The position numbers were made by a program, and so were the translations under genes. Shown here piece after piece: positions 4,984-15,247 of a DNA stretch of 64,000 nt. The stretch is from NCBI GenBank assembly GCA_963747235.1, contig CAVVEU010000014.1, forward strand, positions 128,001 through 192,000, read 5' to 3'. Source of the DNA: an uncultured Candidatus Rokubacteria bacterium. GTDB lineage: Bacteria; Methylomirabilota; Methylomirabilia; Rokubacteriales; CSP1-6. Under the pieces are notes generated by a model. The model was given only the letters and a program-made list of their open reading frames with translations, ran no database searches and was not told the DNA's origin. The stretch's first letter is position 1, and each line of letters opens with the position of its first letter.

Positions 4984-6786
4984 CAGCCGGACTCGCCGAG
5001 CGTCACCTGGGCCACCTTCTGGAGGAAGATGGCTTCGTAGATCTGCCGCGCGATCGGAGCCGCAACCTGGCCTCCCTTGCCGCCCCGCTCCACCAGCACC
5101 ACCACGACGTACTGGGGATCGTCGACCGGGGCGAACGAGGCGAACCACGCGTGGTCCTGCCCCTTGGAGGAGTCGCTCTTCGAGATGGTCTGGGCGGTCC
5201 CGGTCTTCCCCGCGATCTCGAACCCGGGCACGCGGGCCAATGCCCCGGTGCCGTCCTTGACCACCGCGGCGAGCGCGTGGCGCAGGAAGCCCCAGACGAC
5301 CGGGGAGAGGTCCACCCGCTCCGTCATCTGGCTCGACGAGCCGTAGGCGAGGGTCCCGTCCGCGCGCTCGACGCGCTGGACCAGCCGCGGCTTCCACATC
5401 ACGCCGCCGTTGGCCACCGCGGCCATCATCCGCGCGATCTGGAGCGGCGTCACCAGGAGCTGCCCCTGGCCGATCGACATGTTCACGGTGTCGCCCGGCA
5501 GCCAGGCCCTCTTGGTGCGCAGGCGCTGGGCGGGCGTGAACGGCACCAGCCCGAAGCGCTCGCCGCCCAGGTCGATGCCGGTGGGCGACCCCAGGCCGAA
5601 GGCCTGCGCGTACTTCGCCATCATGTCGCCGCCCACCTTGAGCCCGGCCTGGTAGAAGAAGATGTCGCACGACTGCGCGATGGACTGGTGCAGGTTCACG
5701 TGGCCGTGCCCGCCCGGCTTCCAGTCCTTGAAGGTCCAGTTGCCCAGGGTGAACTCGCCGTTGCAGTAGATGTTGTCCATCGGGGTCAGCGAGCCTTCCT
5801 GGAGCCCGGCGGCCGCGACGATGATCTTGAAGACCGACGCGGGCGGGTACATGCCCTGCAGCGCGCGGTTCATGAGCGGAGACATGGGATCGCGCACGAG
5901 GCGCACCCACTCGTCCCGGTCCAGGTTTCCGGTGAGCCGATCGAGCGGGAAGGCGGGGCTCGAGGTGAGCGCCAGCACGTCGCCGTTGCGCGGATCCATC
6001 ACCACCACCGAGCCGGCCTTGCCGACCATCGCGCGCTCCGCCGCTTCCTGGATGCGGCGGTCGATCGTGGTGATGACCTGGGCGCCCGGATCGGGCTCCT
6101 CGCGCCGCATGATCTGCACCGGCCGGCCGAGCGCGTCCACCTCGATGCGCTCGCCGCCGTCGCGCCCGCGCAGGTGCTCGTCGAGGAGCCGCTCGAGGCC
6201 GGACTGCCCGATCATGTCGCCGCGGCGGTAGCGGCCGCCGCTTCATCTGCTCGTCGCTGACTTCCCGGACGTAGCCCAGGAGGTGGGCCGCGAACGTGCT
6301 GGTGGGATAGGTGCGCTGGGGCTCGACCTCGACGATGACGCCCGGGAGCTCGAGCTTGCGCTCCTCCACCATCGTGACGTCCTCCAGCGACAGGCCGCGC
6401 CGCACCCGCACCGGGCGGATCGAATCCGCGGGCACCTTCTCCAGCGCCTCCATCAGCTCGCCCACCGGCATCTTGAGCAGGACGGCCAGCCGCGCCAGCA
6501 CCTGGTTCCGGTCCTCCATCTCGCGCGGGATCAGCGAGAGGGTGAAGGCCGGGCGGTTGTCCACCAGCGCGAGCCCGTTCCGGTCGAAGAGGATGCCCCG
6601 GGGCGCCGCGACCGGACGGATGCGGATCCGGTTCCTCTCCGACAGCTCCTGCATGCGGCCGCCTTCCAGCACCTGGAGGTACCAGAGCTGGCCGACCAGC
6701 GCGACGAAGCCGATGGAGCTGACCACCGCGAGCGCGAGGACGCGCCGGCCCCAGGCCTCCCGACGATTGGAGAGCGCCGCGCTCAC
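4983..6786 (-). CDS. mrdA: Penicillin-binding protein 2 (frameshift near 6235)
   Basis: APRGILFDRNG N-terminus; SVFK (SxxK), SCD and KTGT motifs in the second frame. Confidence 0.92.
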
Positions 6787-7283
6787 GACTGCCACGAGCG
6801 CCTCCGCATCAGCTCGTAGCCGGCCTCGGCCAGGATGCACAGGGTGCCGATCAAGCCGTTGTAGAGCGCCTGCGGCAGGATCACGTGGAGCATCAGCTCA
6901 CCGAAGGCCGCCGGGTAGTGGAACATCTGCAGGAGGAGGAATCGCGCGAGCCCCTCGGTCACGCTCAGCAGCACGAGGCCGGGCACCTGCACGAGCGGAT
7001 TCGTGACCCAGAAACGGCCCACCAGCAGGCCCATGCCGAAGCCGGCCAGTCCCTTGGTGAGCGCCTGCACGCCCACGAGCCCGCCCCCGGTGGCGTCCTG
7101 GAGCAGCCCCGCCACGAAGCCGGCGAGACAGCCGGACTCCGGCCCATTGCGGAGCGCGATCAGCACGGTGAGGATGAGCGGCACGTCGGGCGTGACCCCG
7201 CCCACGCCCCGCGCCGCGACCACGGTGGACTGCAGGACGCCGCCGCCCACGGTGACGAGGAGCAGGAGCAGACGCAGGCCCAT
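6783..7283 (-). CDS. mreD: Rod shape-determining protein MreD
   Basis: Hydrophobic, PDVPLIL...GLLQD; lies between mreC and mrdA. Confidence 0.88.
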   Translation of the reverse strand: MGLRLLLLLVTVGGGVLQSTVVAARGVGGVTPDVPLILTVLIALRNGPESGCLAGFVAGLLQDATGGGLVGVQALTKGLAGFGMGLLVGRFWVTNPLVQVPGLVLLSVTEGLARFLLLQMFHYPAAFGELMLHVILPQALYNGLIGTLCILAEAGYELMRRRSWQS

Positions 7284-7285
7284 GG

Positions 7286-8126
7286 CTAGCCATCCGACGG
7301 GAACAGCGCCGCCACGTCCTGGGTCGTTTGCCCGGTGAGGAGCAGCACCTCCTCGACGCGGGAGACGTCCACGGCGGGCGTGAGGACCGCGAAGTGGAAC
7401 AGGGCCGAGCCCTTGTCCTCGATCTTGACGACGCGGCCGACCGGCAGACCCTTGGGGAAGAGCGTGCCCAGGCCCGAGGTGACCACGAGGTCGCCCGGCG
7501 CGACGCTCGCCGCCGTCGCGCGCCATGAACTTGAAGCGCACCGCGCCGCCCGCGTCCCCTTCGACGAGCCCGGCGGTGCGGGTGCGCTGCACCACCGCGC
7601 CCACCGTGGAGGCCGGATCGTTCAGGAGCTGGATGACCGCGGCGCTCCGGTGCACCTGGACGACGCGCCCCACCAGCCCGTCCGGCACGATGACCGGCGT
7701 CTGCTGGGCGATGCCGTCGCCGCGCCCGCGATTGACGGTCAGGGAGCGCACCCAGCCCCCCGCCTCGCGCCCGATGACCTCGCCCGCCACGGTGGCCAGG
7801 GGCAGCCGGTCCCGCAGCACGAGGAGCCGGCGGAGCCGCGTGTTCTCCTCGCGCGTCTCGCCGGCCTGGAGCGCCTGGACGCGGAGCTGCTCGTTCTCGC
7901 CGCGGAGCGTGACCACCTCCCGGCGCACCACCTTCCAGTCGACGTAGTTGGCCCAGAAGCCGAGGGCGCCGCGATGGACGCGCACCAGCAGGCTCTGGAC
8001 CGGGGTGAGCACGACGGCCAGCAGCTCGCCCGCCCGCCCGGTGCCGCCCCCGCGTGTCTGCACCGTCAGGAGCAGGAACGACACGAGTAGCACCGCGAGA
8101 AGGATCCCGTATCTGCGAACTCTCAC
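7286..8126 (-). CDS. mreC: Rod shape-determining protein MreC (frameshift near 7510)
   Basis: TM helix, coiled coil, GLVGRV; C-terminus VTSGLGTLFPKGLPVGRV in ORF 7286..7486. Confidence 0.9.
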
Positions 8127-9966: not shown

Positions 9967-10043
9967 GACCCGAGTATAGCGCCCCGGTTGGATCTGCCGG
10001 CTTCGCTGTGGCACCATGCCGGCGCCGGCGAAAGGACACGATC

Positions 10044-11080
10044 GTGGACGATCTCGAGGTCTGGTTCGACAAGGGCGTGACGGACGGCCTGCCCGTGATC
10101 CCGCCGTCGCGGGAGCGCGTAGAGCGGATGCTGCGCGGCACCACGCGCGATCGCGCAGGAGCTGGTGGGCGAGGTCGCGCCCAACTACGGCCGCGCGACG
10201 GTCGAGAAGGTCGCGGTCAACGCGGTGATGGCCGGCTGCCGGCCGGAGTACCTGCCGGTGGTGCTCGCGGCGGTGCAGGCGGTCACCGATCCCGCCTTCA
10301 ACCTGCACGGCGTCTCGACGTCCACCCACTTCTCCGCTCCGCTGCATCGTGGTGCACGGCCCGATCCGGGAGCGGATCGCGCTCAATTGCTCGTTCGGCG
10401 TGTTCGGTCCCGGGCACCGGGCCAACGCCACCATCGGCCGCGCCCTCCGCCTCGTGATGATCAACCTGGGCGGCGCGAAACCGGGCGAGACGTCCATGTC
10501 CACCTTCGGCCATCCCGGCCGCTACACCTACTGCATCGGCGAGCACGAGGAGGCGAGCCCGTGGCCGCCCTATCACGCGGACCGCGGGCTCGCGGCCGGA
10601 GCGACAGCGCGGTGACCGCGTTCGCGGGCGAGGCGCCCCACGGCATCTCCGATCACGCCAGCCGCACCGCCCGCGCGCTGGCCGGCTCGCTCGGCTGGTC
10701 CATGGCCTCCCTGTGGAACGCCAAGCACTTCCCGCTCTACTCGCACACCATGCTGGTGGTCGGGCCGGAGCACGCGCGCACCTTCGGCGACGAGGGCTGG
10801 AGCAAGCGCGATCTCATGCGTCATCTCTTCGAGACGATCCGCGCCCCGTACGCGAGCCTCCAGCCTGCCGAGGACAACGGGGAGGGCACCAACCTGCGCT
10901 TCGCGAAGGGAGCCGCGCCCGCGCCCGGACCAGATGATCCCCAAGTTCCCCTCGCCCGAGGAGCTGCACGTGGTGGTGGCCGGCGGCACCGCCGGGCGCT
11001 TCTCGATGGCCATCCCCGGCTGGCTGGGGACCCGCAACGGCTCGCGGCCGATCACCGTTCCCATCCGGGATATCGCTTGA
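10044..11080 (+). CDS. Conserved hypothetical protein (TDGLPVIPP / [11 protein letters not shown] family), several frameshifts
   Basis: Pieced together from ORFs 10008, 10165 and 10349; SD AAAGGA before GTG at 10044. Confidence 0.7.
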
Positions 11081-11105
11081 CAGGCCCAGGACGCTCGGCT
11101 AGGCT
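11077..11105 (+). promoter_or_regulatory. Sigma-70 promoter of the first csp gene
   Basis: TTGACA-N17-TAGGCT. Confidence 0.75.
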
Positions 11106-11155
11106 GCGGGGCAGGTTACGGGTCACTCGGTAGTCGGATTCAGAAGCTCGATACC

Positions 11156-11278: not shown

Positions 11279-11479
11279 ATGGCTCAGGGCAACGTGAAGT
11301 GGTTCAACGACGCGAAGGGGTACGGGTTCATTTCCCAGGAGGATGGCGAGGACGTGTTCGTGCATTTCAGCGCCATTCAGGCCCAGGGCTTCAAGAGCCT
11401 GGCCGAGGGCGATCGAGTCGAGTTCGAGGTCACCCGGGGGCCGAAGGGTCTCCAGGCCGCGAACGTCCGCAAGGTCTAA
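11279..11479 (+). CDS. cspA: Cold-shock protein
   Basis: [12 protein letters not shown] (RNP1) and DVFVHF (RNP2). Confidence 0.97.
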
Positions 11480-11570: not shown

Positions 11571-11640
11571 GCGCGCGATTTCAGGACCCTGAAGTGTTGT
11601 TCTCTCGTACGTGAACGAAACTCGGTTCCAGGGAACGGTG

Positions 11641-11760
11641 GCGCCATGAGGACCTCGGTCCTCAGTGGCGCTTTTTTTGTTCCCCCCGCTTCCGGGGGGA
11701 AACCCCAGCCATGGTGGCGCGGGGCCTAGCGGGCGGTCCATCCCCGCCCAAGAGAGAGGG
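11641..11760 (+). ncRNA. Structured 5' leader of csp #2 with intrinsic terminator
   Basis: GCGCCA-TGAGGAC-ctcg-GTCCTCA-g-TGGCGC-TTTTTTT, then three more hairpins. Confidence 0.62.
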
Positions 11761-11769
11761 AACAGACGT

Positions 11770-11973
11770 ATGGCACAGGGCACGGTCAAGTGGTTCAACG
11801 ACGCAAAGGGGTACGGGTTCATCCAGGTCGAGGGCGGAGAGGATGTCTTCGTCCACTACAGCGCCATCCAGGCCCAGGGCTTCAAGAGCTTGGCCGAGGG
11901 CGACAAGGTCGAGTTCGAAGTGACGAAGGGGCCCAAGGGGCTACAAGCTTCCAACGTTCGGAAGTCGGCGTAA
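11770..11973 (+). CDS. cspA: Cold-shock protein (second paralog)
   Basis: [18 protein letters not shown]...DVFVHY; ATG at 11770 after SD AGAGAGGG. Confidence 0.96.
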
Positions 11974-11987
11974 GCGTCGCCGACCAC

Positions 11988-12030
11988 TTGACGGCCCGCC
12001 GGGGAGATCCGGCGGGCCGTTTCTTTCTCT
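11988..12030 (+). terminator. Intrinsic terminator of csp #2
   Basis: ACGGCCCGCCGG / CCGGCGGGCCGT stem followed by TTCTTTCT. Confidence 0.8.
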
Positions 12031-12054
12031 CGCCCCGTCCCGACAGATCCCGAC

Positions 12055-12400
12055 AGAAAAAAGAACCCCGACGGATGCTGCGGCGGCAGTCTTGCGCTTC
12101 CGCTGCCGTGCCGCCCCGCTGGTGAAGAGCGGGTCCGTCGGGGCCGGTGGTTCCTGGGTCCTCCAGGGCCACCTGCAACTGCTACTTCGGGGCCTTAGGA
12201 GGCGACCACCTCACAGATCACCGTAGGGGTACACATCGGCTGGATCACCTCCCTTTCTCGGCGCGGCCCATCCTGGGCCCAGGACCCGCTCACCTCGCTC
12301 CGGACGCCGACTCCCGGCGGGAGGCTCGGTCACGTTGCTTCCGGCGAAATTGCCGGAAAGGAACGCTCAAAGGAGCCTGTGTTCGCTCCGACCGATTTCG
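12055..12400 (-). ncRNA. Putative structured small transcript carrying an anti-16S segment and an sORF
   Basis: -10-like TACGAT at 12411-12406; nested stems; 3' 10-bp closing stem (12143-12134 with 12075-12066) followed by a U-tract. Confidence 0.55.
12195..12236 (-). CDS. 13-aa small ORF MCTPTVICEVVAS
   Basis: ATG directly after AGAAAGGGAGGTGATCCAGCCG (extended SD); TAA stop. Confidence 0.55.
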   Translation of the reverse strand: MCTPTVICEVVAS

Positions 12401-12441
12401 GGGTCATCGTACATGAGGCCGACGCGGCGGGAAAGCATTTT

Positions 12442-12738
12442 TCACTTCACGACGATCCGCCCCGCGTTCTTCTCGATCACGCCCTTGCCGACGCCGTCGA
12501 CCTTCTCCAGATCCTGCGCCTTCTTGAACGGCCCATGGGCATCCCGGTACTCGATGATCTTCTGCGCGCCGCCCGGGCCGACGCCCGCGAGCTTCATGAG
12601 GTCCGCCTTCGACGCCTCGTTGATGTTGACCTTGCCCTCCGCCTTGGCCTTGGCGGGCTTGTCGTCCGCCATCACCGCGCCCCCGCCGAGACACCACATC
12701 GCCAGCACCACCGCCCCCAGCCATCGCGTCGTCTTCAT
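12442..12738 (-). CDS. comEA: ComEA-like helix-hairpin-helix DNA-binding protein with signal peptide
   Basis: KVNINEAS...LAGVGPGGAQKIIEYR..HGPFK..DLEKVDGVG; SD AGGAGGAG. Confidence 0.88.
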   Translation of the reverse strand: MKTTRWLGAVVLAMWCLGGGAVMADDKPAKAKAEGKVNINEASKADLMKLAGVGPGGAQKIIEYRDAHGPFKKAQDLEKVDGVGKGVIEKNAGRIVVK

Positions 12739-12840
12739 TACCCACTCTCCTCCTGGAATTGAGATGAGCTGCTGACGCGATTCCACGCCGCGGGACGCGG
12801 GCGGTCAATGCGGACAATTTCAGACGGGCGGGTGTATCTA

Positions 12841-13149: not shown

Positions 13150-15247
<2,098 letters not shown>

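Follow-up and report, generated by a model that had tools for sequence, protein, structure and literature searches.

Comparative sequence analysis of a 64,000-nucleotide stretch of DNA from an uncultured Candidatus Rokubacteria bacterium of the phylum Methylomirabilota (referred to below as the window) indicates that a minus-strand locus between a ComEA-like gene and a cold-shock gene holds a genuine stand-alone gene, whose RNA is ∼345 nt long and tightly knotted. The same comparisons identify this RNA as the long form of the Ms_IGR-5 type of small RNA (Rfam RF02471), to which a 150-nt 5′ domain has been added. On balance, we think it probable that it is a stand-alone translated RNA that engages ribosomes and has its output at the level of the RNA, with the encoded peptide as a by-product; this view draws on sequence conservation and on analogy with a characterized system. 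An initial reading of the window from its letters alone (the sequence-only reading) had described a discrete, structured RNA around a short open reading frame (sORF). All elements that it named are present where it had placed them on the minus strand, and conservation, frame retention and covariation support a gene for a discrete, structured and conserved RNA with a real sORF. The features of the locus and its two neighbours are as follows.

12442..12738, minus strand: ComEA-like helix-hairpin-helix protein, upstream neighbour (Pfam HHH_3)
12406..12434, minus strand: putative sigma70-type promoter, with −10 element TACGAT at 12411-12406 and a weak −35 candidate 17 nt upstream, read by eye
12055..12399, minus strand: predicted transcript of ∼345 nt, 5′ end placed from the −10 box and 3′ end from the U tract
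12326..12395, minus strand: 5′ domain P1, enclosing hairpins P2 and P3 (covariation)
12395-12390 and 12331-12326, minus strand: P1 strands TCGGTC and GACCGA
12389-12385 and 12376-12372, minus strand: P2 strands GGAGC and GCTCC
12381-12377, minus strand: element a, CACAG in the P2 loop
12358-12352 and 12345-12339, minus strand: P3 strands TTCCGGC and GCCGGAA
12292..12325, minus strand: hairpin P4, with two-sided changes in 4 of 10 pairs
12310-12305 and 12263-12258, minus strand: predicted pseudoknot between UCGGCG in the P4 loop and CGCCGA just upstream of SD1
12237..12260, minus strand: SD1, extended Shine-Dalgarno sequence, with 16 nt at 12252-12237 that complement the 16S 3′ end perfectly
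12195..12236, minus strand: sORF of 13 codons, MCTPTVICEVVAS, ATG to TAA
12218..12222, minus strand: element c, GGUGA in the ORF (partner, terminator inner loop)
12212..12216, minus strand: element a′, CUGUG, the 'Cys' codon and its flanks (partner, element a)
12205..12212, minus strand: SD2 or element d, the intra-ORF sequence GAGGUGG, 9 nt upstream of the stop codon (partner, CCACC at 12151-12146)
12198..12203, minus strand: anti-SD GCCUCC at the ORF end, able to pair with SD1 (long form)
12146..12194, minus strand: post-stop hairpins, containing the CCUGG/CCAGG stem and d′ (ACCACC, 12151-12146); variable, insertions tolerated
12167-12153, minus strand: CCTGG/CCAGG stem
12055..12144, minus strand: branched intrinsic terminator, with a long outer stem, an inner hairpin, a variable second hairpin and a U tract
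12143-12134 and 12075-12066, minus strand: terminator stem, followed by the T tract at 12065-12055
12125-12121, minus strand: c′, UCACC in the loop of the terminator inner hairpin
11773..11973, plus strand: cold-shock gene, downstream and convergent (Pfam CSD)

Sequence conservation starts and stops at the limits of the predicted transcript. A −10-like hexamer, described by a loose expression, lies 146–156 nt upstream of SD1 in all 50 homologs compared. A simple consensus scan missed both the promoter of the RNA gene, whose −10 element falls below the threshold of that scan, and the branched terminator. Part of the region 11600–12800 is contained in 18 of 21 listed sequencing runs, three of which are recorded as RNA (shares of 0.21–0.28), figures that constitute no evidence of expression.

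The fold of the single sequence was modestly better than chance (z = −2.68, with 1 of 100 shuffles as good). Covariation, which the sequence-only reading had proposed as a check, was found among the homologs: a 73-pair model that includes the pseudoknots, derived in part from the same 43 sequences on which it was tested, had 98.0% of its cells paired and 20 pairs changed on both sides. None of 500 shuffles reached these values, and slid controls were 37–49% paired. RNAalifold, applied to the 43 aligned homologs, gave double changes in 19 of 67 pairs. Helix by helix, two-sided changes were present in the same 43 homologs in P1 (3 of 6 pairs), P2 (2 of 3), P3 (2 of 5) and the outer stem of the terminator (4 of 11).

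Two of the pairings first proposed were revised. TCGGCG and CGCCGA, originally read as a stem closing a second domain, form instead a predicted pseudoknot, since TCGGCG sits in the loop of the covarying hairpin at 12325-12292; one G-C pair of this pseudoknot is replaced by A-U in 8 of 43 homologs, all in a single clade. The hairpin proposed downstream of the ORF keeps its CCTGG/CCAGG stem, whereas the outer GGTGG/CCACC helix is probably not the main pairing, CCACC being more likely paired with the GGTGG inside the ORF. Six long forms (L189, L190, L191, L192, L096 and L057) carry inserts of ∼60–130 nt in this post-stop hairpin region, which therefore tolerates expansion.

DNA searches found a single copy of the RNA gene in its own genome and matches in 53 of 61 relatives, including all 23 of high quality. 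A motif pattern (SD1, 20–50 nt, GAGGTG, 9 nt, TRR) was matched in 151 of 170 Methylomirabilota genomes (96 of the 104 high-quality ones), and its reversed counterpart, used as a control, in 7 genomes of the same set; of the 150 matches listed, 149 terminate in a stop codon and not in TGG. Judged from these sequence matches, the RNA gene is a core gene of the Methylomirabilota and nearly always single-copy. One genome (L193, G013:C9:870700-876600) contains two inverted copies, each with csp genes downstream and comEA-like sequence upstream.

The csp/comEA neighbourhood pointed out in the initial reading is present here and is typical of the organism's own order, with a comEA-like gene upstream in 39 of 70 loci and a convergent csp gene downstream in 41 of 70. 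The wider arrangement, with HNH and comEA-like genes upstream and csp genes downstream, is typical of that order only; the neighbourhood is thus lineage-specific and not part of the element. A survey of 46 loci across lineages, based on Pfam labels with 143 of 328 candidate ORFs scanned, found the downstream gene convergent in 21 loci, co-directional in 9 and unlabelled in 16, with no shared family. Such unrelated downstream genes in mixed orientation argue for a stand-alone RNA. We also considered a cis-acting attenuator leader controlling a downstream gene, for which a short ORF, alternative pairings and a terminator would be suitable parts and the co-directional loci a suitable setting; given that the next gene is convergent here, as it is in 21 of the 30 loci whose downstream gene carries a label, and that the downstream families are unrelated, we regard this explanation as scarcely credible. 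A partnership with HNH of the HEARO kind was rejected: an HNH gene lies upstream only in the organism's own order, and the neighbours in other lineages are unrelated.

Several further observations concern the surroundings of the locus. The convergent cold-shock gene is one of two tandem, near-identical genes on the plus strand (11279-11479 and 11773-11973), and positions 11664-12022 match the cspA thermoregulator below threshold (36.6 bits). On the minus strand, the first ATPase domain of an ABC-F family gene (13202-15247) is split over two frames, the second piece being the ORF at 13437-15185; this split could reflect frameshifts, assembly errors or a pseudogene. A mreC/mreD-like region (6783-8126, minus strand, named by eye) reads as one fused, frameshifted ORF, and an unlabelled plus-strand gene (10008-11133) extends across two or three frames. 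Indel errors seem to be present in the assembly.

The sequence-only reading had recognised no tmRNA, RNase P or 6S signature, and this agrees with our searches: the true genes for these RNAs and for 16S rRNA lie elsewhere in the genome (the tmRNA gene on a different contig), and Rfam and ARAGORN searches were negative at the locus, so that these identities, as well as a 16S pseudogene, were rejected. No match to SRP RNA was found within the window. No Rfam family reached its gathering score at the locus, where only unrelated weak matches appeared up to an E-value of 10. The Ms_IGR-5 model likewise gave no match there up to that value, its gathering threshold of 45 bits not being reached; it gave none at the locus in a search of the organism's own genome (150 of 616 candidates scored), and of four other long forms one reached 26.8 bits. 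The earlier description of the RNA as undescribed holds in the sense that no Rfam family matches it; it fails in that the locus is a long-form homolog of Ms_IGR-5, a validated but uncharacterised sRNA.

The link to Ms_IGR-5 runs through intermediate members. Families f6, f11 and f13 of the same phylum carry a short form of ∼200 nt, and all 12 short-form copies scored from that phylum pass the Rfam Ms_IGR-5 cut-off (50–84 bits). A profile built from these 12 relatives ranked the window locus first in the genome, covering positions 10–210 (E = 1.7e-4); a profile of 45 actinobacterial copies also placed it first in the 5.57 Mb genome (E = 6.8e-4), and a combined actinobacterial and short-form profile gave E = 2.9e-5. 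With the actinobacterial and short-form profiles, the 16S end ranked second in the genome. The motif order of Ms_IGR-5 (leader, SD1, UGUGAGGUGG, CACC, branched terminator) is present at the locus, with the leader motif displaced into a 5′ hairpin loop. We conclude from these comparisons that the locus is homologous to Ms_IGR-5 through intermediates, although it falls below the Rfam threshold itself.

In common with this copy, Ms_IGR-5 has a leader ACAC, an SD1 of the form GGAGGUG(G/A)UCC, a short frame that ends in E-V plus three codons, a hairpin, the motif CACC and a branched terminator with an inner loop that pairs with the ORF. The two differ in that Ms_IGR-5 measures ∼184–200 nt and has actinobacterial hosts, whereas the RNA described here measures ∼345 nt in a Methylomirabilota host, adds the 5′ domain, supplies the leader motif from a hairpin loop, has GGUGA/UCACC in place of GGAC/GUCC and extends the complementarity to 16S rRNA to 16 nt. 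The Rfam entry describes a non-coding actinobacterial sRNA, and its consensus structure contains none of the pseudoknots.

Outside the phylum, a cross-phylum pattern scan over 185,579 species genomes returned at least 120 matches, which carried the labels Methylomirabilota/Rokubacteria, Binatia and other deltaproteobacteria, Nitrospiria, Acidobacteriota and Actinomycetota; the named records whose motifs are nearly identical belong to Rokubacteria/Methylomirabilota. The stop codon, which has no place in that pattern, falls exactly three codons after E-V in 116 of the 120 listed matches; four of the 120 (L064, L065, L073 and L094) were dropped as chance, as were the Acidobacteriota matches L250 and L261. 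The strict pattern was matched in 127 of 251 sampled Actinomycetota genomes (125 with a stop-ending match; four of the genomes with matches are unpublished), in 18 of 151 Acidobacteriota genomes (16 stop-ending), in 2 of 101 genomes from the phylum of the Nitrospiria record and in 2 of 81 from that of the Binatia record. The Rfam model found 48 of 141 sampled Actinomycetota genomes, three of them unpublished. Eight of nine actinobacterial pattern matches tested scored above the Ms_IGR-5 threshold, as against none of 11 other matches; in three of four non-actinobacterial genomes the model did match the same loci at sub-threshold scores (39, 33 and 22 bits). Assignment to the long or short form is noisy outside the phylum. 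One small actinobacterial genome contains two nearby copies of the motif (G770:C1:2586-2642 and 5550-5606).

Actinobacterial members have been reported as expressed sRNAs, and we count this in favour of the reading preferred here. S. coelicolor scr4389 may be the same RNA. M. smegmatis IGR-5 is reported to be validated, uncharacterised and NAD-capped (bioRxiv 10.1101/2021.12.14.472595), to be detected as ncMSMEG15794c (PMC10454040) and to occur in alternative lengths (both sources); Ms_IGR-5 is also recorded in S. avermitilis (PMC8780764) and Streptomyces lividans (PMC8079986). We found no report of an ORF, an extended SD or pseudoknots in Ms_IGR-5 in the literature covered, which excludes most subscription journals and in which supplements may list an sORF. 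A preprint on Rv0810c concerns another locus and was set aside as a source on this RNA.

The comparison of long and short forms suggests that the 3′ half of the ORF is paired with the 5′ leader, the CACC motif and the terminator loop, and so forms a knot, which begins 14–18 nt beyond the start codon. No signal came from an initial pseudoknot test that took a 180-nt window (5.47 versus 5.31); one emerged only with the first terminator loop. In shuffle tests of the individual long-range pairings, which ignore kinship among copies and so overstate significance, c and c′ were cognate in 116 of 149 copies against 54.5 ± 5.2 (first terminator loop only, 35 of 184 copies having been dropped where no 3′ stem was located), the leader of the short forms covaried with the codon before GAG (a:a′) in 63 of 88 against 21.6 ± 3.6, and d:d′ runs of at least eight pairs were found in 40 of 87 against 29.2 ± 2.4. 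The c:c′ combinations comprised GGTG/CACC (53 copies), GGAC/GTCC (44), cross combinations (2) and several rarer forms, and a:a′ in the short forms was represented by about ten different matched pairs. For the GGTG after the stop codon, 60 of 77 folds contained an upstream partner; as the competing CCACC was left out of them, the existence of such a partner is all that they show.

The three ORF helices are almost invariant among long forms, and support for them comes therefore from the short forms and from differences between lineages. The long-form partner of a′, CACAG in the P2 loop, is paired in 97% of cells with no double changes, and SD1 is paired with the anti-SD at the ORF end in 99.6% of cells with one-sided changes only; GCCUCC is absent from the ORF of the short forms f6 and f11.

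The same pairings bear on a second possibility, that of an sRNA that acts in trans and is gated by being translated itself: anti-SD-like seeds would be hidden by the knot (CCACC and the loop UCACC), and translation or processing would free the 3′ domain to pair with the ribosome-binding sites of target mRNAs. The 3′ domain is indeed the best-conserved block and carries the CACC motifs, and alternative lengths of M. smegmatis IGR-5 and shorter processed RNAs from rreB of Bradyrhizobium (PMC5711450) would suit such a mechanism. Since the terminator loop changes together with element c, however, an internal partner fits better than a set of shared targets, and we consider a trans-acting role unlikely.

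The mRNA footprint of an initiating ribosome ends at about +14 to +18. In 165 of 168 copies, element c begins no earlier than +14 (+14 to +18 in 145), which fits the edge of an initiating ribosome. SD2, GAGGUG, lies exactly 9 nt upstream of the stop codon; with the stop codon in the A site, it would end 6 nt before the P-site codon, a spacing like that of initiation.

The reading frame that contains these elements has been kept. The sORF is intact in all 50 close homologs, where it starts with ATG or GTG and changes length by whole codons. Among 202 distinct copies across the family, in which the frame spans 12–19 codons, the stretch from SD1 to the stop codon is interrupted by an in-frame stop in none, as against 158 and 191 in the other frames (the +2-frame count is inflated by TGA inside conserved motifs); ATG, GTG, TTG or CTG is present in frame in 198, as against 48 and 25. 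The stop codon is UAG in 158 of the 202, compared with 536 of 1569 long ORFs of the organism's own genome. Distant relatives keep the frame open by way of a GTG one base earlier, and the geometry is retained in 45 of 46 actinobacterial loci found with the Ms_IGR-5 model. The start codon is other than AUG in 116 of the 202 copies, and many copies start at UUG, CUG, AUU, AUA or ACG. Near-cognate starts are common among the Actinomycetota copies, one group of which (for example G714, G312 and G802) has an apparent ATA or ATC start and longer frames.

The peptide itself behaves differently. Variant codons in 34 ORFs of the organism's own lineage comprised 20 non-synonymous and 5 synonymous changes, and of 45 actinobacterial copies found with the Rfam model, only 7 have Cys as the residue preceding E. 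A conserved Cys metal ligand was accordingly rejected as an artefact of a pattern that demanded TGY, copies found without TGY showing other residues. Because the Cys codon is free to change (it tracks the leader) and non-synonymous changes dominate, the codon data indicate a frame that is under selection and a peptide without visible selection. The dual-function label given to the RNA in the initial reading is weakened to the same extent: its reading frame is real and kept, and its peptide sequence bears no visible mark of selection.

A peptide product nevertheless deserves consideration, in the form of a tightly repressed 12–19 aa peptide with an E-V core (a signal, metal-binding or nascent-chain regulatory peptide) whose synthesis the fold merely keeps low. 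All copies retain the frame with its start and stop, E-V and exactly three following residues are invariant, and the RreB and RreR peptides are reported as conserved within their own clades (PMC5711450). The invariant E-V may matter as peptide, which would count against the by-product view. GAG GTG, on the other hand, is not replaced by GAA or another GTN codon in any of 71 own-lineage copies, and among 45 actinobacterial copies it is kept in 44, with GAG GGG in the remaining one; in L237 (G201:C5:1-600), a weak Ms_IGR-5 match, GAGGTG lies 8 nt and not 9 nt before TAG and would be read in another frame. Together with the variable Cys and the predominance of non-synonymous changes, this leads us to rate the peptide as an improbable product. 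Searches of literature and supplements with peptide words found nothing relevant.

Type I toxin mRNAs (tisB, hok, ldr and fst) have long structured UTRs, a sequestered SD, a pseudoknot and a small ORF, and the locus, a self-contained structured mRNA whose strong SD would be sequestered (opening SD1 costs 12.6 kcal/mol in the nested fold), could be taken for one that is locked by long-range pairing. Unlike those mRNAs, it lacks a conserved hydrophobic membrane peptide: the encoded peptides are not long enough, nor are they hydrophobic throughout the family (GRAVY −1.9 to 2.2, mean 0.37, above 1 in 62 of 202). It is, moreover, a single-copy core gene, and none of 33 pattern matches in viruses has the architecture; these were judged by eye to be chance, so that the pattern scan yielded no phage copies. 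A simple promoter scan found no antisense promoter on either strand. We consider a toxin mRNA very unlikely.

The 16 nt of SD1 that perfectly complement the 3′ end of the organism's own 16S rRNA stop at the base directly before the ATG and are extended by five more pairs past a one-base bulge; the duplex is predicted at −38.5 kcal/mol. SD1 is one of two non-rRNA 16-nt matches in the genome to the last 30 nt of 16S rRNA; the other (G000:C11, minus strand) has no GGAG core and is probably due to chance. SD1 and the ORF start together form an almost colinear pairing with the final 40 nt of 16S rRNA (−60.9 kcal/mol, compared with −18.3 kcal/mol for the helix 45 hairpin by itself). This raises the possibility that the RNA acts in antisense to chaperone or remodel the 16S 3′ minor domain: CCCCUACGG, beyond SD1, would pair with the 5′ strand of helix 45 and could unfold that helix in immature or damaged 30S subunits. 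The helix 45 match reaches at least 9 nt, and up to 12 nt, in 40 of 248 copies, yet it is shorter than 7 nt in 178 of them; the bases involved also encode the ORF and element c, and the match may be a relic of an origin from an inverted 16S end. We therefore hold remodelling of helix 45 to be most improbable as the function of the RNA.

The closest characterized parallel is with rreB and rreR of the Alphaproteobacteria, which are also stand-alone small mRNAs with 16–17 nt of 16S complementarity running up to an ORF of 14–18 codons and an SD predicted to be partly hidden in structure. The rre type is defined by complementarity of at least 16 nt directly before an sORF, as is found here, and by a GTG start whose G is the last complementary base; this copy has ATG, and 21 of the 50 close homologs have GTG at the rre-type position. 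In Bradyrhizobium, rreB, with an SD of 17 nt and an ORF of 14 codons, is reported to co-sediment with 30S subunits and to be weakly translated, and changing its start codon to a stop stabilises it, pointing to start-codon-dependent decay (PMC5711450). The RreB frame, as far as it can be read from the oligonucleotides in that paper, has no E-V and no internal GAGGUG, so that the similarity is limited to the SD; rreB is also shorter (165 nt) and has simple hairpins, as opposed to a knotted RNA of ∼345 nt. The consensus of CC2171 (RF01867), reported as validated in Methylorubrum (bioRxiv 10.1101/2022.01.24.477521), begins with the same extended SD, and its model found no match in the organism's own genome. 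By this analogy, the locus is probably a functional analogue of the rreB/rreR mini-mRNAs.

Our preferred reading, that of a translated RNA whose output is the RNA, is based on the core-gene distribution, the homology to Ms_IGR-5, selection on the frame without selection on the peptide, the knot, the stand-alone context and the rreB precedent. SD1, in the long form once freed from the anti-SD, would capture a 30S subunit, which would then sit on the start codon with the knot at its mRNA entry side. Its departure would be slowed by the excess length of the SD duplex and, in most lineages, by a weak start codon; in S. aureus, extended SDs with non-canonical starts are reported to lower initiation (PMC13009471). 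An elongating ribosome would unzip the knot, and at the stop codon SD2 could re-pair with the 16S tail at initiation-like spacing. Ribosome occupancy and translation would in this way set the fate of the RNA, which would be knotted and stable or opened and turned over, and the RNA would serve as a sensor or a small store of initiating ribosomes.

Some observations weigh against parts of this scheme. The conservation of SD2 has an intramolecular explanation, its pairing with CACC, so that a second 16S contact is not required, and the copy in the window starts with ATG and not with a weak codon. Twenty-fold overproduction of rreB is reported to have left growth unchanged (PMC5711450), which argues against simple sequestration of ribosomes. 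A bolder version of the preferred reading, which we advance only tentatively and regard as rather doubtful, is that of a multi-phylum class of ribosome-parking RNAs, in which the initiating ribosome would be clamped between a maximal SD duplex and an entry-side knot and handed to SD2 as the stop codon reaches the A site. The 5′ leader, tied to the ORF, could close a ring around the 30S neck, and in the organism's own lineage the RNA may also open helix 45 of 16S rRNA; such an RNA would be a counterpart of hibernation factors or an initiation-fidelity sensor.

For a decade, Ms_IGR-5 has figured as an actinobacterial sRNA that is non-coding and has no known function. The sequence comparisons indicate instead that RNAs of this type are translated and pseudoknotted, with a fixed geometry on the scale of the ribosome, and that they are core in Methylomirabilota, present in about half of the sampled Actinomycetota and patchy in Acidobacteriota, Nitrospirota and Binatia-labelled genomes. 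An orphan sRNA is thereby turned into a precise, testable hypothesis of translation control, with M. smegmatis and Streptomyces as tractable carriers. tmRNA (RF00023) offers a comparison: it too measures ∼350 nt, arranges several pseudoknots around a short ORF and engages ribosomes, whereas the RNA described here has no tRNA-like domain and has its own SD and start codon. If it is true that this RNA parks or senses ribosomes, it would represent a new class of ribosome-directed RNA beside tmRNA.
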